This document shows positions 6,204-44,899 of a DNA stretch of 64,000 bases, piece by piece. The first letter of the stretch is position 1; each line of letters begins with the position of its first letter. The position numbers and the translations under genes are program-made. This DNA comes from Longimicrobiales bacterium (GTDB taxonomy: Bacteria; Gemmatimonadota; Gemmatimonadetes; Longimicrobiales; Gaopeijiaceae), in the NCBI GenBank assembly GCA_965219445.1, contig CBDCNQ010000002.1, positions 576,001-640,000 on the forward strand. Reading direction: 5' to 3'. Under the pieces are notes generated by a model. It worked only from the letters and a program-made list of their open reading frames with translations. It searched no databases and had not been told where the DNA came from.

Positions 6204-6233
6204 GGAGGTTGGGTCAATAGGTGTGTAAATGTT

Positions 6234-7478
6234 TCAGGCGGCGTTTTTCCGCTGTTGGGTTGAGACGGGCTTTCCGTCTTCGAACTTTCTTCCTTCAAAT
6301 ACGTCCTTGAGGAGGTGAGGAGCGTCGAGCCTTCTGAAGCGCTTCTCCGCCACCAAGAGCAGCTTCCAGATCAGCGCCGTAGCGCTCTCGACCCGCTTGA
6401 AGCGCTTCGCCGCCGTTGTCCTGAGCCGTACTGCGGCAAAGGGGCTCTCGACCACGTTCGTCGTGCGTAGATGCTTCCAGTGGTCCTCGGGGAAGTCGTA
6501 GAACGCCACCATCCGCTCCCAGTCGTCCTCGAGTACATCCACCGCCTTCGGATACCACGGTCTGTAGCGCCTGGCGAACGCCTCACGGGCCTTCAGCGCC
6601 TCGGACCGCCTCGGTGCGTAGACCACGGTCCTGAGAAGGTCCTTCGCCTCGCTCTGCTCCCGCTGAGGCAGCCGGTCCAGCACGTTCCTCATCTTGTGGT
6701 TCCAGCACCGTTGCTCGCCCGCCTCAGGCCATACCTGCCGTACTGCGCCCCAGATCGCCGCGTTGCCGTCCGCCATCAAAAGCCGGGGCGCCTCGATGCC
6801 GCGTGCCTTCAGATCCCGCAACACCTCGGACCAGGACTCGACCGACTCTCGGTAGCCCGATCTCAGGGCCAACACCTCCTTCGTACCATCTCGCATCGCA
6901 CCGAGAACCACCAGCAGCGCTGCCTTGTCCCGCTCGAGCCCCGCCTTCACGTAGATCCCGTCCGCCCAGACGTAGACGACCTCACGGTCGGCCAGCGAGC
7001 GCTTCGACCATTCCTCGAATTTCCTTGTCCATCCCGCCCGCAGCCGCCAAATCGAAGACTTCGACAACGGGGCCCCCTCGCCCAGCAGGCCCCGCATCGC
7101 CAGCTCGAAGTCTCCCTCCGCCAGCCCGTGCAGATACAGCTCCGGAAGCAGAGCACCCACCTCCTTCGTCCGTCGTGCGAACAACGGCAACACCCGACTC
7201 TCGAACCGCTCCTCAATGCCTCGAACCCGGGGCCGTCGGAGCATGATCGTGCCCGAGCTCATCGCCAGCCGCCGAGCCTTGCCGTAGCCGTTGCGGTAGC
7301 CTGGCGCCGGGTCTACGACCGTCTTCCGCTCCGACTTCTCCCGGCCGAGCAACTCCGTCACTTCCTCCTCCAGAATCCGCTGGACCATCTCCTGGGCCTT
7401 CTCACGAACCAGCGCTTCCAAGCACTCCCACGTCGGCGTGCTGGACTCACTCTCGGGTCCCACCATATTCTTCCTCAC
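6234..7478 (-). CDS. IS256-family DDE transposase
   Basis: YRNGY, WADGIY, LMADG, QRCWNHK, LRTTNVVES motifs; 414 aa. Confidence 0.95.
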   Translation of the reverse strand: MRKNMVGPESESSTPTWECLEALVREKAQEMVQRILEEEVTELLGREKSERKTVVDPAPGYRNGYGKARRLAMSSGTIMLRRPRVRGIEERFESRVLPLFARRTKEVGALLPELYLHGLAEGDFELAMRGLLGEGAPLSKSSIWRLRAGWTRKFEEWSKRSLADREVVYVWADGIYVKAGLERDKAALLVVLGAMRDGTKEVLALRSGYRESVESWSEVLRDLKARGIEAPRLLMADGNAAIWGAVRQVWPEAGEQRCWNHKMRNVLDRLPQREQSEAKDLLRTVVYAPRRSEALKAREAFARRYRPWYPKAVDVLEDDWERMVAFYDFPEDHWKHLRTTNVVESPFAAVRLRTTAAKRFKRVESATALIWKLLLVAEKRFRRLDAPHLLKDVFEGRKFEDGKPVSTQQRKNAA

Positions 7479-7574
7479 GAGGCATCGTTCCTTTCCCCCG
7501 GGCGCTCACCCGGGATTCGCTGGTTAACTTCTTACTACCTAGCGGAAAGGTACGTCGCCTCTTTTTTTACACAC

Positions 7575-9169
7575 CCTTCTATGGGGCTGGCGGTCAAGAC
7601 GCACCTTCCCCACGCGCCGTCGGCTCATTTTTTGACCGTCGGCGTCCGCATGGTTTGGATTGCCCGGTCGACGACTCAGGGTGGGGAGGGGTGCGCTCGC
7701 AGGGTCCGCATCGCAGTCCGGAAGACGTTCACAGCCGTCGCGTTCTCCGCTCTGGAGCGGGAACCATCCTTCTATCTGGGACTCTGTGGCCCATCGCTTC
7801 GTTCGGCTCTTCCAGGGGTGCATAGCCTTTGAGTGGGGGCTTGGGCTCTCTGCCCCGGCCCACGGTGTGTATGGATGCTGTCCCCTGTAACCGGTTCGCT
7901 TCCGTTTCGTCGGACCCCATGTTGTGACCGCTTTCGACCCCACGCTCGCCGATCCCAGGCCGGTTTACTCCGTCGCTTCCAGTCTCTTGGGGTCGTACGC
8001 TTCGCCCGTGCGCCACACCGCTAGCACGATCGAGGCGAGCTGACGCGCGATCGTCAGCTTCGCCAGATTCGGCTTCGTGCCCCCCTCCAGGAGTCGCTCG
8101 TAGTGGCGGTACAAGGGTTCGTTTTCGGCCCGACCGATCACCGTCGTCGCCGCGCCCTTGAACACACGCTTCAGCGTGTGGTTGAAGTTCCGATTCAGCC
8201 CCCGCGTCTGCTGTACCGGTTCCCTTACCCACCGCCCACCCGGACCCCGCACCCAGTCCGACGAGCTCCGCATCACCACGCCCAGTCCGCAGTACGCCCA
8301 GAACCTGCTCCGGCTCTGGAACCGGTACGGCGTCACCACCACCGGCAGGAGCTCCGCCGTCCGGATCGGACCCAGACCCGGGCACGTCTTCAGCACATGC
8401 CACTCTCGATGCTTGCGTGCTTCCGCCAGCAACGCCTTCTCGGCCTTCGCCCTCAATGCCACGAGTGCGTCGTGCTCCTCGTACAGCAACCCGGCCGTCG
8501 TCCTGCTCGCTTCCGGCAGCTTGGCCAACCACTCCTCCCGGTCGCGCTTTAAGTAGACCGAGCGCCCCGCGCCGTAGGCCACTCCTCTCGAGCGCAGCAC
8601 GCTCTTGAGCCGGTTCTTCACCCGCACCGTGTCGCCGACCAGGAAGTCGTAGCTCTTCGCCCGTTCCCCCAGCCGCCTGAACTGGCCCCGGTTCTTGTAG
8701 ACCCTCGTCTCCAGTGATCCGATCCGCAGCTTCTCCGCCAGGGCAAACGCGTCCAGCTTGTCGGTCTTCGGGCCCCGGCTCTTGCCGACCCCCGCCACCG
8801 TCAGCTCCTCCACGTGCGGCTCCAGCACCTCGTACAGCCACCCCGACAGCGTCCCTTCTTCCAGGCATAAGTGCCGGTTCCTCGGAATCCCTCGCAGCAC
8901 CTCGATCAGCGCCCGCGCGTTCGTCTCCACCACCTGCGAGCCCAAGCGCTTGCCGCTGGGGCCTACAATCCCCAGCGTGCAGCTCGACGCGTGTGCGTCG
9001 AGTCCGATATATCTCTCCATCGGCGTTCTCCTCTTGGATAGGTGGGTTGCTTCCTTGCGCGAACAATGATGAACGCGCACCCGCTCCCGGAGGAGAACGC
9101 CTCTTCGTCTTCGGGCTGCTTCGCTGCTGATCGGTACCGGTAGCCGTCGCCATGCCCCTATGATGCCTT
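7575..9169 (-). mobile_element. IS110-family (IS1111-like layout) element, copy A
   Basis: Bounded by CCTT at 7575-7578 and 9166-9169; long non-coding region downstream of the transposase; near-identical copies at 25905-27191 and 39552-41145. Confidence 0.9.
7965..9020 (-). CDS. IS110-family DEDD recombinase/transposase
   Basis: YIGLDAH, CLEEG, KTDKLDA (DEDD), TCPGLGP, WAYCGLG..RSSS; start at MERYIG. Confidence 0.92.
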   Translation of the reverse strand: MERYIGLDAHASSCTLGIVGPSGKRLGSQVVETNARALIEVLRGIPRNRHLCLEEGTLSGWLYEVLEPHVEELTVAGVGKSRGPKTDKLDAFALAEKLRIGSLETRVYKNRGQFRRLGERAKSYDFLVGDTVRVKNRLKSVLRSRGVAYGAGRSVYLKRDREEWLAKLPEASRTTAGLLYEEHDALVALRAKAEKALLAEARKHREWHVLKTCPGLGPIRTAELLPVVVTPYRFQSRSRFWAYCGLGVVMRSSSDWVRGPGGRWVREPVQQTRGLNRNFNHTLKRVFKGAATTVIGRAENEPLYRHYERLLEGGTKPNLAKLTIARQLASIVLAVWRTGEAYDPKRLEATE

Positions 9170-9182
9170 TGATCCTAGCTCC

Positions 9183-24488: not shown

Positions 24489-24571
24489 TGTTCCTCCTTG
24501 CTAGGAAACGGCAGTGCGGATACATGAAACTGTCCCGGGTTTGAGGTCGGGTCAATAGGTGTGTAAACGTT

Positions 24572-25816
24572 TCAGGCGGCTGCTTTGCGCTGATGAGCTG
24601 AGACGGGCTTACCGTCCCTGAACTTCCTTTCTTCAAACACGTCCTTGAGCAGGTTTGGAGCGTCAAGCCTTCTGAAGCGTTTCTCCGCCACCGTCAGGAG
24701 CTTCCAGATGAGGGCGGTAGCACCTGTCGACGCGCTTAAATCGTTTTGCTGCCGACGTGCGGAGCCGTACCGAAGCGAACGGGCTTTCCACCACATTCGT
24801 CGTCCGTAGATGCTTCCAGTGGGCTTCGGGGAAGTCGTAGAACGTGACCATGCGGTCCCAGTCATCCTCGAGCACCGTCACAGCTTTCGGGTACCACGGC
24901 CCATAACGCTTGCCGAACGCCTGACGAGCTTTGAGCGCCGCGGCCCGTGTCGAGGCGTAGACGACTGTGCGCAGCAGTTCCTTGGCCTCTGACTGCCCGC
25001 GCTGCGGCAGCCGATCCAGGATGTTCCTCATCTTGTGATTCCAGCACCGCTGCTCGCCGGCCTCAGGCCACACCGTCCTCGCCGCGCCCCAGATCGCCGC
25101 GTTACCGTCGGCCATCAGTAGCTTCGGCGCTGCGAGGCCTCGAGCCTTGAGACCCCGAAAGACCTCCGCCCACGAGTCCGTTGACTCCCGGTAGCCTGAT
25201 GTGACGGCCAGAACCTCTTTCGTCCCGTCGCGCATGGCTCCCATCACCACCAGCAGCGCCGCTTTGTCTCGCTCCAGGCCCGCCTTCACGTAGATCCCGT
25301 CCGCCCATACGTAGACGACCTCACGGTCCGCCAAGGACCGCTTCGCCCACATCTCGAACTCACTCGACCACACGGCCCTGAGCCTGCGGATCGAAGCCTT
25401 CGACAGCGGCGCCCCCTCACCGAGTGGGCCCCTGAGCGCCAGCTCGAAATCCCCCGCGGCCAACCCGTGTAGGTACAGCTCCGGTATCAACTCCCCTACC
25501 TCCTTCGTCCGTCTCGCAAACAGCGGCAACACCGACTCTCGAAGCGTTCCTCCAGACCCCGTACCCGGGGGCGTCGCACCGTGATCGTGCCCGAACTCAT
25601 CGACAGCCGCCGCGCCTTGCCGTACCCGTTGCGGTAGCCAGGCGCCGCATCCACGGCTGCCTTCCGCTCTGACTTCTCACGGCCGAGGAGCTCGGTGACT
25701 TCCTCCTCCAAGATCTGTTGGATGAACTCCCGGGCCTTTTCACGGACCACTCCCTCCAGGCCCTCCCACAGCGGCATGGTGGACTCGGTCTCGGGTCCCG
25801 CGATATCCTTCCTCAT
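24572..25816 (-). pseudogene. IS256 transposase variant, two frameshifts
   Basis: Three overlapping ORF pieces (25496-25846, 24663-25532, 24572-24865) rebuild a homologue of 6234-7478 with many amino-acid differences. Confidence 0.88.
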
Positions 25817-25904
25817 GAGGCGACGTTCCTTTCCCCCGGGTGGCAACCCGGGACTCGCTGCTTAATGGTCAGCGGAAAGGTACGTCGCCTCTCTTTTTAC
25901 ACAC

Positions 25905-27191
25905 CCTTCTATGGGGCTGGCGGTCAAGACGCACCTTCCCCACGCGCCGTCGGCTCATTTTTTTGACCGTCGGCGTCCGCATGGTTTGGATTGCCCGGTC
26001 GACGACTCAGGGTGGGGAGGGGTGCGCTCGCAGGGTCCGCATCGCAGTCCGGAAGACGTTCACAGCCGTCGCGTTCTCCGCTCTGGAGCGGGAACCATCC
26101 TTCTATCTGGGACTCTGTGGCCCATCGCTTCGTTCGGCTCTCCAGGGGTGCATAGCCTTTGAGTGGGGGCTTGGGCTCTCTGCCCCACGGTGTGTATGGA
26201 TGCTGTCCCCTGTAACCGGTTCGCTTCCGTTTCGTCGGACCCCATGTTGTGACCGCTTTCGACCCCACGCTCGCCGATCCCGGCCCGGTTTACTCCGTCG
26301 CTTCCAGTCTCTTGGGGTCGTACGCTTCGCCCGTGCGCCACACCGCTAGCACGATCGAGGCGAGCTGACGCGCGATCGTCAGCTTCGCCAGATTCGGCTT
26401 CGTGCCCCCCTCTAGGAGTCGCTCGTAGTGGCGGTACAAGGGTTCGTTTTCGGCCCGACCGATCACCGTCGTCGCCGCGCCCTTGAACACACGCTTCAGC
26501 GTGTGGTTGAAGTTCCGATTCAGCCCCCGCGTCTCCGGCAGCTTGGCCAACCACTCCTCCCGGTCGCGCTTCAAGTAGACCGAGCGCCCCGCGCCGTAGG
26601 CCACTCCTCTCGAGCGCAGCACGCTCTTGAGCCGGTTCTTCACCCGCACCGTGTCGCCGACCAAGAAGTCGTAGCTCTTCGCCCGTTCCCCCAGCCGCCT
26701 GAACTGGCCCCGGTTCTTGTAGACCGTCGTCTCCAGTGATCCGATCCGCAGCTTCTCCGCCAGGGCAAACGCGTCCAGCTTGTCGGTCTTCGGGCCCCGG
26801 CTCTTGCCGACCCCCGCCACCGTCAGCTCCTCCACGTGCGGCTTCAGCACCTCGTACAGCCACCCCGACAGCGTCCCTTCTTCCAGGCATAAGTGCCGGT
26901 TCCTCGGAATCCCTCGCAGCACCTCGATCAGCGCCCGCGCGTTCGTCTCCACCACCTGCGAGCCCAAGCGCTTGCCGCTGGGGCCTACAATCCCCAGCGT
27001 GCAGCTCGACGCGTGTGCGTCGAGTCCGATATATCTCTCCATCGGCGTTCTCCTCTTGGATAGGTGGGTTGCTTCCTTGCGCGAACAATGATGAACGCGC
27101 ACCCGTTCCCGGAGGAGAACGCCTCTTCGTCTTCGGGCTGCTTCGCTGCTGATCGGTACCGGTAGCGGTCGCCATGCCCCTATGATGCCTT
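25905..27191 (-). mobile_element. IS110-family element, copy C (303-bp internal deletion)
   Basis: CCTT cores at 25905-25908 and 27188-27191; both ends and the non-coding region are retained. Confidence 0.88.
26290..27042 (-). pseudogene. IS110 transposase with in-frame 101-aa deletion
   Basis: LAKLPE is joined directly to TRGLNRNF; 753 nt versus 1056 nt in the intact copies. Confidence 0.9.
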
Positions 27192-27204
27192 TGATCCTAA
27201 CTCC

Positions 27205-27878: not shown

Positions 27879-29448
27879 CTACCGCCTGCCCCGCTCACGC
27901 AAGATCCGAATGGCGGCGCCGAGGTTGTTCTGCGTCATAGCCCAGTCGAGGGGTACTCGATCGCGCGTCCGCTCCTTGAGCGCCTCGGTGAAGGCATCCA
28001 CAGCCTGCTCAAGGCGCTCTGTCCCGCTCTCTCGCTCGCCCAAGGCCGTAAGGGCGACGCCGAGGTTGTTCTGCGTCATAGCCCAGTTGAGGGGCACTCG
28101 ATCGCGCGTCCATTCCTTGAGCGCCTCAGCATAGGCATCCACGGCCTGCTCAAGGCGCTCTGTCCCGCTTTCCCGCTCGCCCAGGGCCGTAAGGGCGCCG
28201 CCGAGGTTGTTTTGCGTCGCGGCCCAGTTGAGAGGCACTCGATCGCGCGTCTGCTCCTTGAGCGCCTCAGCATAGGCATCCACGGCCTGCTCAAGGCGCT
28301 CTGTCCCGCTTTCCCGCTCGCCCATGGCCGAAAGGGCGACGCCGAGGTTGTTTTGCGTCATAGCCCAGTTGAGGGGCACTCGATCGCGCGTCCATTCCTC
28401 GAGCGCCTCGGTGTGGGCATCCACGGCCTGCTCAAGGCGCTCTGTCCCGCTTTCTCGCTCGCCCAAGGCCGTAAGGGCGGCGCCGAGGTTGTTCTGCGTC
28501 ATAGCCCAGTCGAGGGGTACTCGATCGCGCGTCCGCTCGTTGAGCGCCTCAGCATAGGCATCCACGGCCTGCTTCAAGGCGCTCTGTCCCGCTTTCCCGC
28601 TCGCCTAGGGTCTCAAGGGCGACGCCGAGGTTGTTTTGCGTCGTAGCCCAGTCGAGGGGCACCCGATCGCGCGTCTGCTCCTTGAGCGCCTCGGTGAAGG
28701 CATCCACGGCCTGCTCAAGGCGCTCTGTCCCGGGCTCCCGCTCACCCAGGGTCGCCAGGGCGACGCCAAACGCCATATGCAGGGAGGCGCGACGCTCCGA
28801 TTCGACCGTACCGCCTTCGAGCAGGGCGGCGATCTTCTTGATGACGCCGTTCAGGCCCTTCTCCAGCACCCGGCCGCGTGCTTCCGTTCCCGTGATCGGC
28901 GCTGCAACTCTCAGCGCCTCGGCGGTGAGCTGAGCACGGAGATCCTCGTGGAAGTCATCCTGCAGCCTCACGTTAACCAACTCGTAAGGCAGGTCCGCTC
29001 GATGAAGTGTGCCGTCCCCCTCGCGCGGCACGAACCACAAATTTAGTGCTTTTCCGGGATCTTTGACCGAACCGACGACTGCCAAGTCGGCATTCCACGT
29101 TTTCAACACTGTGAGGGTGCCCTTCCGCATGGCTGGCCGCCAATCGTACGCAGCACCAAGTGCTGACACGACACGGGCAGAGCGGACCAATTCGATGCCC
29201 TCAACGCCAGTGAAGGCCTCTTCGACCGTGCTCGTGTCACGTCCGGCAGCATCGTGTTGCAACCAGCACAACACCAAGCGAAATCTCTGTTCAGGAAGCG
29301 GCGGTCTGCTCTTGAAAGCATTGGCGATGGCCAACTGCGTCCGTTGAGGCGACGGCAGGAATTGCGTAAAGAACCCCTTGAGCCAACCCCTTAACACTGC
29401 CAAGACGATGGCGACGATCCAGACGACCGGACTCGTTAACAACTCCAT
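27879..29448 (-). CDS. Membrane-anchored TPR-repeat protein (1-nt frameshift at ~28573)
   Basis: N-terminal TM helix; WAxTQNNLGxAL TPR repeats; one repeat reads CTGCTTCAAGG where the others read CTGCTCAAGG. Confidence 0.85.
27915..28765 (-). repeat. About 6 tandem 141-bp (47-aa) coding repeats
   Basis: Unit WAMTQNNLGxALTALGERESGTERLEQAVDAxxEALKExTRDRVPLD/N, highly similar at DNA level. Confidence 0.92.
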
Positions 29449-38982: not shown

Positions 38983-39056
<74 letters not shown>

Positions 39057-39183
39057 CTGGGGCGAGGGCACTTGGACGCTCGATCCAGGTGGAACCTAAC
39101 AGGCCACTTGCTGCGGCCCAATGCTCGTGCGCTGAACGTGTGGGGTCTGGGGAAGGATCCTGTGGTCGGGCGCGCGCGCTGCG

Positions 39184-39538: not shown

Positions 39539-39700
39539 GGAGCTAGGATCAAAGGCATCATAGGGGCATGGCGACCGCTACCGGTACCGATCAGCAGCGA
39601 AGCAGCCCGAAGACGAAGAGGCGTTCTCCTCCGGGAACGGGTGCGCGTTCATCATTGTTCGCGCAAGGAAGCAACCCACCTATCCAAGAGGAGAACGCCC

Positions 39701-40756
39701 ATGGAGAGGTATATCGGACTCGACGCACACGCGTCGAGCTGCACGCTGGGGATTGTAGGCCCCAGCGGCAAGCGCTTGGGCTCGCAGGTGGTGGAGACGA
39801 ACGCGCGGGCGCTGATCGAGGTGCTGCGAGGGATTCCGAGGAACCGGCACTTATGCCTGGAAGAAGGGACGCTGTCGGGGTGGCTGTACGAGGTGCTGAA
39901 GCCGCACGTGGAGGAGCTGACGGTGGCGGGGGTCGGCAAGAGCCGGGGCCCGAAGACCGACAAGCTGGACGCGTTTGCCCTGGCGGAGAAGCTGCGGATC
40001 GGATCACTGGAGACGACGGTCTACAAGAACCGGGGCCAGTTCAGGCGGCTGGGGGAACGGGCGAAGAGCTACGACTTCTTGGTCGGCGACACGGTGCGGG
40101 TGAAGAACCGGCTCAAGAGCGTGCTGCGCTCGAGAGGAGTGGCCTACGGCGCGGGGCGCTCGGTCTACTTAAAGCGCGACCGGGAGGAGTGGTTGGCCAA
40201 GCTGCCGGAAGCGAGCAGGACGACGGCCGGGTTGCTGTACGAGGAGCACGACGCACTCGTGGCATTGAGGGCGAAGGCCGAGAAGGCGTTGCTGGCGGAA
40301 GCACGCAAGCATCGAGAGTGGCATGTGCTGAAGACGTGCCCGGGTCTGGGTCCGATCCGGACGGCGGAGCTCCTGCCGGTGGTGGTGACGCCGTACCGGT
40401 TCCAGAGCCGGAGCAGGTTCTGGGCGTACTGCGGACTGGGCGTCGTGATGCGGAGCTCGTCGGACTGGGTGCGGGGTCCGGGTGGGCGGTGGGTAAGGGA
40501 ACCGGTACAGCAGACGCGGGGGCTGAATCGGAACTTCAACCACACGCTGAAGCGTGTGTTCAAGGGCGCAGCGACGACGGTGATCGGTCGGGCCGAGGAC
40601 GAGCCCTTGTACCGCCACTACGAGCGACTCCTGGAGGGGGGCACGAAGCCGAATCTGGCGAAGCTGACGATCGCGCGTCAGCTCGCCTCGATCGTGCTAG
40701 CGGTGTGGCGCACGGGCGAAGCGTACGACCCCAAGAGACTGGAAGCGACGGAGTAA
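39701..40756 (+). CDS. IS110-family DEDD recombinase/transposase
   Basis: Same protein as 7965-9020 with a few substitutions; GAGGAG RBS. Confidence 0.93.
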   Translation: MERYIGLDAHASSCTLGIVGPSGKRLGSQVVETNARALIEVLRGIPRNRHLCLEEGTLSGWLYEVLKPHVEELTVAGVGKSRGPKTDKLDAFALAEKLRIGSLETTVYKNRGQFRRLGERAKSYDFLVGDTVRVKNRLKSVLRSRGVAYGAGRSVYLKRDREEWLAKLPEASRTTAGLLYEEHDALVALRAKAEKALLAEARKHREWHVLKTCPGLGPIRTAELLPVVVTPYRFQSRSRFWAYCGLGVVMRSSSDWVRGPGGRWVREPVQQTRGLNRNFNHTLKRVFKGAATTVIGRAEDEPLYRHYERLLEGGTKPNLAKLTIARQLASIVLAVWRTGEAYDPKRLEATE

Positions 40757-41120
40757 ACCGGCCTGGGATCGGCGAGCGTGGGGTCGAAAGCGGTCACAAC
40801 ATGGGGTCCGACGAAACGGAAGCGAACCGGTTACAGGGGACAGCATCCATACACACCGTGGGCCGGGGCAGAGAGCCCAAGCCCCCACTCAAAGGCTATG
40901 CACCCCTGGAGAGCCGAACGAAGCGATGGGCCACAGAGTCCCAGATAGAAGGATGGTTCCCGCTCCAGAGCGGAGAACGCGACGGCTGTGAACGTCTTCC
41001 GGACTGCGATGCGGACCCTGCGAGCGCACCCCTCCCCACCCTGAGTCGTCGACCGGGCAATCCAAACCATGCGGACGCCGACGGTCAAAAAATGAGCCGA
41101 CGGCGCGTGGGGAAGGTGCG
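40757..41120 (+). ncRNA. Putative bridge/seek RNA of the IS110 element (also in copies A and C on the minus strand)
   Basis: Two stem-enclosed internal loops (40834-40908, 40908-40966) carry TACACACC and TCAAAGG (target matches) and ATAGAAGG (donor junction match). RNA ends are not determined. Confidence 0.75.
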
Positions 41121-41241
41121 TCTTGACCGCCAGCCCCATAGAAGGGTGTGTAAAAAAAGAGGCGACGTACCTTTCCGCTAGGTAGTAAGAAGTTAACCAG
41201 CGAATCCCGGGTGAGCGCCCGGGGGAAAGGAACGATGCCTC

Positions 41242-42486
41242 GTGAGGAAGAATATGGTGGGACCCGAGAGTGAGTCCAGCACGCCGACGTGGGAGTGCTT
41301 GGAAGCGCTGGTTCGTGAGAAGGCCCAGGAGATGGTCCAGCGGATTCTGGAGGAGGAAGTGACGGAGTTGCTCGGCCGGGAGAAGTCGGAGCGGAAGACG
41401 GTCGTAGACCCGGCGCCAGGCTACCGCAACGGCTACGGCAAGGCTCGGCGGCTGGCGATGAGCTCGGGCACGATCATGCTCCGACGGCCCCGGGTTCGAG
41501 GCATTGAGGAGCGGTTCGAGAGTCGGGTGTTGCCGTTGTTCGCACGACGGACGAAGGAGGTGGGTGCTCTGCTTCCGGAGCTGTATCTGCACGGGCTGGC
41601 GGAGGGAGACTTCGAGCTGGCGATGCGGGGCCTGCTGGGCGAGGGGGCCCCGTTGTCGAAGTCTTCGATTTGGCGGCTGCGGGCGGGATGGACAAGGAAA
41701 TTCGAGGAATGGTCGAAGCGCTCGCTGGCCGACCGTGAGGTCGTCTACGTCTGGGCGGACGGGATCTACGTGAAGGCGGGGCTCGAGCGGGACAAGGCAG
41801 CGCTGCTGGTGGTTCTCGGTGCGATGCGAGATGGTACGAAGGAGGTGTTGGCCCTGAGATCGGGCTACCGAGAGTCGGTCGAGTCCTGGTCCGAGGTGTT
41901 GCGGGATCTGAAGGCACGCGGCATCGAGGCGCCCCGGCTTTTGATGGCGGACGGCAACGCGGCGATCTGGGGCGCAGTACGGCAGGTATGGCCTGAGGCG
42001 GGCGAGCAACGGTGCTGGAACCACAAGATGAGGAACGTGCTGGACCGGCTGCCTCAGCGGGAGCAGAGCGAGGCGAAGGACCTTCTCAGGACCGTGGTCT
42101 ACGCACCGAGGCGGTCCGAGGCGCTGAAGGCCCGTGAGGCGTTCGCCAGGCGCTACAGACCGTGGTATCCGAAGGCGGTGGATGTACTCGAGGACGACTG
42201 GGAGCGGATGGTGGCGTTCTACGACTTCCCCGAGGACCACTGGAAGCATCTACGCACGACGAACGTGGTCGAGAGCCCCTTTGCCGCAGTACGGCTCAGG
42301 ACAACGGCGGCGAAGCGCTTCAAGCGGGTCGAGAGCGCTACGGCGCTGATCTGGAAGCTGCTCTTGGTGGCGGAGAAGCGCTTCAGAAGGCTCGACGCTC
42401 CTCACCTCCTCAAGGACGTATTTGAAGGAAGAAAGTTCGAAGACGGAAAGCCCGTCTCAACCCAACAGCGGAAAAACGCCGCCTGA
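41242..42486 (+). CDS. IS256-family DDE transposase
   Basis: Protein identical to 6234-7478 in the ORF track. Confidence 0.95.
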   Translation: MRKNMVGPESESSTPTWECLEALVREKAQEMVQRILEEEVTELLGREKSERKTVVDPAPGYRNGYGKARRLAMSSGTIMLRRPRVRGIEERFESRVLPLFARRTKEVGALLPELYLHGLAEGDFELAMRGLLGEGAPLSKSSIWRLRAGWTRKFEEWSKRSLADREVVYVWADGIYVKAGLERDKAALLVVLGAMRDGTKEVLALRSGYRESVESWSEVLRDLKARGIEAPRLLMADGNAAIWGAVRQVWPEAGEQRCWNHKMRNVLDRLPQREQSEAKDLLRTVVYAPRRSEALKAREAFARRYRPWYPKAVDVLEDDWERMVAFYDFPEDHWKHLRTTNVVESPFAAVRLRTTAAKRFKRVESATALIWKLLLVAEKRFRRLDAPHLLKDVFEGRKFEDGKPVSTQQRKNAA

Positions 42487-42516
42487 AACATTTACACACC
42501 TATTGACCCAACCTCC

Positions 42517-44734: not shown

Positions 44735-44808
<74 letters not shown>

Positions 44809-44899
44809 TTGTGATGGACCTCAAGGTAATGCGCCCTCCAACTTCCATCCACGGGACAGGCCGGTCCTTCCCTTCCATCGATCCCTCCCATCGCTCGAG

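Follow-up and report, generated by a model that had tools for sequence, protein, structure and literature searches.

An IS110-family (IS1111-like) element of 1590 bp, counting its AG core once, occupies positions 39555-41144 on the plus strand of the window (the whole stretch of 64,000 nucleotides that was analysed). The insertion interrupts an IS256-family element 15 bp into its left inverted repeat. The target left arm and the AG core (39553-39554), at 39540-39554 on the plus strand, are the outer 15 bp of this repeat, which is found uninterrupted 44 times in a related genome (G005). The remainder of the invaded element follows on the same strand at 41145-42515, with the target right arm at 41145-41152, a transposase ORF at 41242-42486 and a right inverted repeat that ends at 42515. 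Insertion occurs without target duplication, the free site being left arm, AG and right arm, and it is specific in site and orientation, with 23 of the 24 left ends in this genome at one base and in a single orientation.

The element and its recombinase gene

The DEDD recombinase gene (39701-40756, plus strand; 351 aa) has 146 nt of non-coding DNA on its left and 388 nt on its right, and 78 nt separate its 3' end from the RNA segment. Pfam domains PF01548 and PF02371 are both found above cut-off, and the NCBIfam IS110 model gives an E-value of 3e-32 at 112 bits, below its cut-off of 140 bits. A DEDD RuvC-like N-terminal domain and a Tnp C-terminal domain with the catalytic serine are present, as in the IS110 family in the broad sense. 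D8, E54, D87, D90 and S253 are invariant in 19/19 aligned homologues and align with the catalytic positions of IS621, which the accessible part of PMC11208158 gives as D11, E60, D102, D105 and S241. A single-sequence search of the PDB with the recombinase returned no match; at the profile level it matches the structures of IS621 and ISCro4, with an E-value of 5e-11 for the IS621 profile. Among 8000 proteins scored, 3146 are homologues at E<=1e-20. Recombinases that are 95-100% identical occur in Longimicrobiales assemblies, and distant ones in other Gemmatimonadota, Myxococcota and Acidobacteriota. Plasmid-borne IS110 relatives are 23-27% identical at most among the best 30 of 51 matches, and the names IS4321 and IS5075 are absent from these 30. 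Judged from these sequence comparisons, the recombinase is a member of a deep clade far from the characterised enzymes.

The left sub-terminal inverted repeat (39560-39573, plus strand) pairs with 41128-41141, which belongs to a segment (41128-41144, plus strand) comprising the right sub-terminal repeat, the donor left arm ATAGA and the AG core. The repeat is 14 nt long and imperfect, with indels, and homologues have perfect repeats of 8-10 bp; the spacing is 7-8 nt versus the 9-10 expected for the IS1111 group, which is defined by near-perfect repeats of 11-13 bp with extensions of 7 (or 6) and 3 bp. In the RNA, the top-strand match lies 5' of the bottom-strand match, as in that group. The C-terminal motif reads GLGVVMRSSSD here, against GL-P----S(t)G for the IS1111 elements in the portion of PMC11187229 consulted, where the repeat likewise differs from the imperfect one found here; the serine is kept, the proline is absent, and S or A usually replaces the following G. 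The element works like an IS1111 member, and with its differing C-terminal motif and imperfect repeats it is a candidate for membership in the strict sense.

The donor right arm (GCATCA; 39555-39561, plus strand) includes CATCAT at 39556-39561, a putative -10 box. TTGACC at 41123-41128 on the plus strand, a putative -35 box, would stand 17 nt from it after joining of the ends, and the corresponding boxes in homologues are TTGACA and CATTAT. No sigma-70-like promoter was found in the linear element. A search for the circle junction gave only one unrelated near match in the genome and nothing in the contigs of four sequencing runs, from which rare forms are dropped. Among 22 listed runs that contain the sequence none is of RNA, which tells neither for nor against expression.

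This genome contains 24 copies of the RNA, three of them inside the window. A second IS256 composite (6205-9181, minus strand) has its RNA at 7892-7737 with a single A added to the linker that joins the hairpins, a variant present in 8/24 copies and tolerated by the structure model. The third composite (24543-27203, minus strand) is defective: its IS256 is divergent, about 300 bp are lost from the recombinase gene, leaving it about 100 codons short, and its RNA (26217-26068) has a 5-nt deletion. This deletion had been read as still allowing GTGGGG/CCCCAC to pair in the inner stem of the first loop. The deletion itself is real and confined to this middle copy of the window (1/24 copies); the best predicted fold, however, sequesters the left guide. 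Elsewhere in the window, five direct repeats at 141-bp spacing lie in an ORF region (27890-28877), and two tRNA-like repeats (38986-39059 and 44738-44811) occupy the distant flanks of the composite.

Two predicted hairpins right of the gene

For a consensus fold, the window and 27 loci chosen from 77 were aligned, with near-identical copies, fragments and shorter Acidobacteria forms excluded. RNAalifold predicts two hairpins from these 28 RNA regions, each with a large internal loop. A target-binding hairpin at 40834-40908 (plus strand) has its outer stem at 40834-40846/40898-40908 and its inner stem at 40860-40863/40881-40884, and a donor-binding hairpin at 40911-40959 (plus strand) has its outer stem at 40911-40916/40954-40959 and its inner stem at 40928-40931/40938-40941. 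In the refined structure 96.3% of 784 cells are paired and 13/28 pairs show a compensatory change; slid controls reach 30-53%, and none of 500 shuffles, a control that ignores relatedness among the homologues, attains the score of the structure. The outer stem of the first loop had been read as CAGGGG..GCAT/ATGC.CCCCTG from the single sequence, and it holds well, with 98.8% and 100% of cells paired and compensatory changes in 5/10 pairs. The other two stems proposed at that stage, GTGGG/CCCAC as the inner stem and GGA.AGC.GAAC/GTTC..GCTCC as the outer stem of the second loop, are out of register: together they are 67.9% paired and score 0.099 versus 0.094 for shuffles. The stems that replace them, GGGC/GCCC and G.AGCCG/TGGTT.C, score 0.373 versus 0.161, with 96.3% of cells paired. 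A long-range pairing of CATCC with GGATG was also considered and was dropped because homologues break it.

Both hairpins follow a common plan of an outer stem, a right guide of about 10 nt, a U-GGGC inner stem and a left guide of about 9 nt, which suggests a duplication. Folded as a single sequence the region is unremarkable, with a z-score of about -1.0 (+1.3 for a longer stretch), and the second hairpin alone folds weakly (z -0.08). An Rfam search of the RNA region found no family, its one match (E 0.92) being attributable to chance. A degraded orphan donor hairpin lacking both target loop and gene is present elsewhere in the genome (G000:C5:1023332-1023424).

Guides and element junctions

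The target loop could be parsed in 46/77 loci and in the window, giving 35 distinct guide sets, and each test used the sets that have the needed end; the left ends of L053-L055 were re-anchored. Scores of guides against their own junctions were compared with those of 20,000 permutations that ignore relatedness. The original prediction had proposed variation of guides with insertion sites across homologues as a check, and the right-target, left-target and left-donor guides do vary in this way, none of the permutations reaching the observed score in any of the three cases.

The right-target guide TACACACC (40850-40857, plus strand) is the reverse complement of 41145-41152; it occurs once in the 374-nt 3' non-coding region, and the chance of such an exact match is 0.0016 (5000 resamples). 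Across homologues it matches 6.31 of 8 bases at its own junction versus 4.00 at permuted ones (n=32; 0/20,000), where true and permuted pairs were each scored at the best of several offsets. Its register shifts by 0-2 nt between homologues, and four of the 32 right ends fit poorly (L027, L029, L041 and L065, 4/8 each). The left-target guide ACTCAAAG(G) (40887-40895, plus strand) matches the IS256 site at 6/8 and the single non-IS256 insertion site at 8/8. Its part TCAAAGG (40889-40895) also occurs once in the 3' non-coding region (chance 0.021; 5000 resamples), and 4.63 of 6 non-core bases match the own junction versus 2.36 for permuted ones (n=24; 0/20,000), with misfits at the left ends of L047 (1/6, a one-base shift) and L065 (3/6). 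The left-donor guide ATAGAAG(G) (ATAGAAGG; 40945-40952, plus strand) is again unique in the 3' non-coding region (chance 0.0014; 5000 resamples) and scores 6.90 versus 5.91 of 7 (n=31; 0/20,000). It equals the left donor arm of its own element at 7/7 in 28/31 elements and tracks five different arm sequences.

The fourth guide had been assigned to GATG, and this assignment fails. The 3' region has three GATG sequences and 87% of resamples contain one, GATG does not covary with the donor arm (3.17 versus 3.11 of 4, a score reached by 5765/20,000 permutations), and its last G is paired within the conserved inner stem. The right-donor guide is likely to be CGAAGC (40919-40924, plus strand) instead, which matches the donor right arm at 4/6 with one central mismatch and scores 4.04 of 6 on own junctions versus 3.62 on permuted ones (n=24; 0/20,000). 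This assignment is graded as likely and not as firm because its signal comes from three lineages: L033, in which the first donor base and its partner change, L047, which matches at 6/6, and three Acidobacteria, which differ at the fifth base.

The core assumed earlier had to be corrected to AG at 41143-41144, with a donor right arm that starts with G, because homologues with A or C after the target core keep G at the left end of the element. The core is the two bases before GCAT, AG here and AA or AC in other homologues. The left guides end on the core, and the right guides have no clear or consistent core pairing, so that the core does not take part in all four pairings as it does in IS621. 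The base that follows the left-donor guide tracks the first post-core target base in two informative lineages (window 40895 and 40952; L033, L035, L045 and L051), and it could take part in pairing of the handshake type; for the base that follows the left-target guide the signal is mixed. A loose target, GGATAG followed by G(A/C)ANNCAA, is common to many homologues (junctions of L011, L013, L014, L016, L022, L026 and L047).

The guide matches might be leftovers at the DNA level or products of chance, in a region without any guide role. Short matches of 6-9 nt, the lack of an Rfam family and the unremarkable single-sequence z-scores would fit such an origin, which is nevertheless very improbable in view of the compensatory stem changes and the guide-junction covariation, both spanning 39-100% protein identity. 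The analysis establishes the recombinase gene, both ends of the element, its insertion point, a conserved fold, and guides tracking junctions across homologues; we are confident that the segment templates a two-hairpin guide RNA, which likely directs the neighbouring IS110-family recombinase to one fixed position in the IS256-family left inverted repeat. The proposal of a bridge/seek RNA encoded downstream of the gene, its right guide preceding the left one, is supported by the covariation of structure and guides, apart from one of four guides and two stems that had been misplaced. The location of the RNA on the 3' side and this order of the guides had been regarded as new; Siddiquee et al. 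(2024) describe both for IS1111 elements in the accessible part of PMC11187229, in which the RNA lies 3' of the gene and the top-strand match precedes the bottom-strand match.

By analogy with IS621 (PMC11208160, PMC11208158 and PMC13626964, as far as their accessible parts describe it) and ISEc11 (PMC11187229, likewise), excision would produce a circle, whose joined ends would bring TTGACC and CATCAT together as a promoter for the recombinase gene and the RNA. With its right guide first and its left guide second, hairpin 1 would bind the top and then the bottom target strand of the IS256 end. Hairpin 2, of like design, would bind the donor DNA where the ends of the element are joined, and AG would be the place of strand exchange by the recombinase. 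In a seekRNA model, which alters only the role of hairpin 2, guiding is left to hairpin 1, with hairpin 2 as a structural or precursor portion, and the protein recognises the ends via the sub-terminal repeats. An 82-nt seekRNA sufficed for ISEc11 according to the portion of PMC11187229 consulted, and the weak right-donor match and the weak fold of hairpin 2 alone agree with this model. It appears rather unlikely, however, given that the stems of hairpin 2 covary, that the left-donor guide equals the element's own arm in nearly all elements over five arm sequences, and that the CGAAGC position tracks the right arm in three lineages.

The IS1111 seekRNAs of ISEc11, ISKpn4, ISPa11 and ISPst6 share with the present system, in the accessible description (PMC11187229), a long 3' non-coding region, the top-strand match first, sub-terminal repeats, natural reprogramming among relatives and a protein length of roughly 350 aa; what sets the present RNA apart from that description is its second hairpin, which has the plan of the first and carries donor-matching guides. 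The defining features of a bridge RNA are also found, namely two conserved internal loops, target guides that covary with the target, and donor guides that covary with the donor, strongly on the left and weakly on the right (three lineages). The IS621 bridge RNA, as presented in the accessible parts of PMC11208160 and PMC11208158, is alike in its two simple internal loops, target loop before donor loop, four guides, a 2-nt core, a DEDD plus serine enzyme and an interrupted right-donor guide. In contrast to IS621, the RNA here lies at the right end, the guide order is reversed in both loops, the core is AG, AA or AC instead of CT, the right guides lack a clear core, and the recombinase is remote, matching at the profile level only. 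A bridge RNA at the right end has been predicted for 93% of IS1111 elements, many of these RNAs having multi-loop donor sites (accessible parts of PMC11208160; preprint PMC10849738), whereas the donor loop here is simple. The reversed donor loop may already appear in further IS1111 RNA models, in Extended Data Fig. 10 of PMC11208160. Belonging to a deep recombinase clade, the element and its RNA are a clear addition to the bridge/seek RNA systems already known of the IS1111 type, and what adds interest is that an IS256 left inverted repeat serves as the target.

IS256 ends as targets

The IS256 left repeat is the site of 23/24 left ends and 21/24 right ends of the element in this genome. One copy has both ends outside IS256, at a site that its left guide matches at 8/8, two bases better than the usual site. 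Of the two further right ends that are aberrant, one is a tandem partial duplication and the other joins unrelated DNA. Tandem partial duplications were noted at G000:C5:1612702 and L005:3921, where the element right end is joined inside its own recombinase gene. An orphan left end of a related element was also seen (G000:C2:661546-661605), with the target left arm GGGATAG, which resembles the commonest target type of the homologues.

Among the 28 IS256 left ends of this genome, 23 are invaded and five are free. An intact free target gave no exact match in the genome, and all five free ends are altered within the 14-bp site. Three of them, belonging to the main IS256 type, consist of GATC of the left arm followed by the final 5, 4 or 3 nt of the donor arm and core together, and these scar-like ends could result from imprecise excision. 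Polishing artefacts were considered as a source of the altered ends and rejected at one of five sites, where contigs of two of four runs cross the variant without difference; one run possibly represents the source sample, and in the remaining two the junction is not covered. IS256 ends with an altered target are likely to be passed over.

The high occupancy might alternatively reflect hitch-hiking, in which IS256 and its passenger moved as one unit without repeated guided invasion; only the reading of occupancy would then change. Consistent with this, 11/16 invaded IS256 bodies are identical, 8/23 composites are flanked by 8-9 bp duplications, and the five invaded ends of a relative (G002) share a post-core base absent from all free ends there. 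The passengers, however, fall into 20 patterns among 21 copies, independent of IS256 type, divergent IS256 copies (21, 46 and 154 differences) are invaded as well, one copy lies outside IS256 at a guide-matching site, and just 15 bp of the repeat are left at the end. Passenger patterns on mostly identical IS256 bodies favour separate insertions, although recombination between copies blurs both lines of evidence; hitch-hiking as the source of the occupancy seems improbable. As a separate observation, 21/28 left flanks of the IS256 copies in this genome (including those at 6205-9181 and 39540-42515 of the window) have an 8-9 bp duplication partner, which lies at a different IS256 copy for 11 left flanks; the genome has therefore been rearranged between composite copies.

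IS256 left ends of related genomes were counted by exact pattern as invaded, free and intact. G002 has 5, 10 and 0, its invaded and free copies belonging to one IS256 subfamily and all free ends lacking the AG core. The counts are 4, 3 and 1 in G003 and 2, 1 and 0 in G004. G001 has 0, 6 and 5, and its single element, with changed guides, abuts the outer part of the right repeat and has an aberrant right end of its own. G005 has 1, 45 and 44, and its one apparently whole element carries eight amino-acid changes. Ten free IS256 copies of G005 that were compared differ at 0-31 bases, which suggests a recent burst. Because of the 44 intact free ends in G005, the idea that targets generally all become saturated was rejected. 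None of the conclusions depends on the unpublished genome G030. Non-matching IS256 ends survive. We infer selection for escape, together with immobilisation of IS256. Among the junctions of relatives, the right junction at L002:3944 (G003:C7) carries an additional AAG at the core, which points to imprecise joining. Flanks of one IS256 locus are met again in different genomes: L006 has the same left flank as the IS256 copy at 24543-27203 of the window, and the L009 element lies in the outer portion of the right repeat, one flank matching the other side of that window copy.

A wider reading is put forward tentatively, as possible rather than probable. The element may be a hyperparasite that uses RNA guidance and is engaged with IS256 in an arms race, in which insertion splits and immobilises the left end, IS256 variants with altered sites escape and spread, and the guide is retuned in reply, the extended left match in G002 and the shift to the right repeat in G001 being examples. 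The RNA would be a duplicated, fully reversed two-loop bridge RNA of an uncharacterised recombinase clade, and the three scar-like free ends would be traces of imprecise excision that confer immunity.

Insertion of one mobile element into the ends of another has a precedent in IS4321 and IS5075, IS1111 elements which, as Partridge and Hall reportedly described in 2003, insert in the terminal inverted repeats of another mobile element. Those two elements target Tn21-family transposons, whereas the element here targets an IS256-family insertion sequence. A literature search, with thin coverage of subscription journals, turned up no paper in which IS256 ends are the target.

The locus provides a readable, covariation-backed model of a right-end bridge RNA with both loops reversed, including a position for the right-donor guide, and it bears on the question whether IS1111-type RNAs guide the donor besides the target. 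The natural variants suggest that the recombinase/RNA pair would be programmable. The clade is large and far from characterised enzymes, and it offers 35 natural guide sets and the cores AG, AA and AC; it is therefore a source from which recombinases that prefer other cores can be drawn. The IS256 ends of six genomes, invaded or free, open guide-target escape between mobile elements to direct test.
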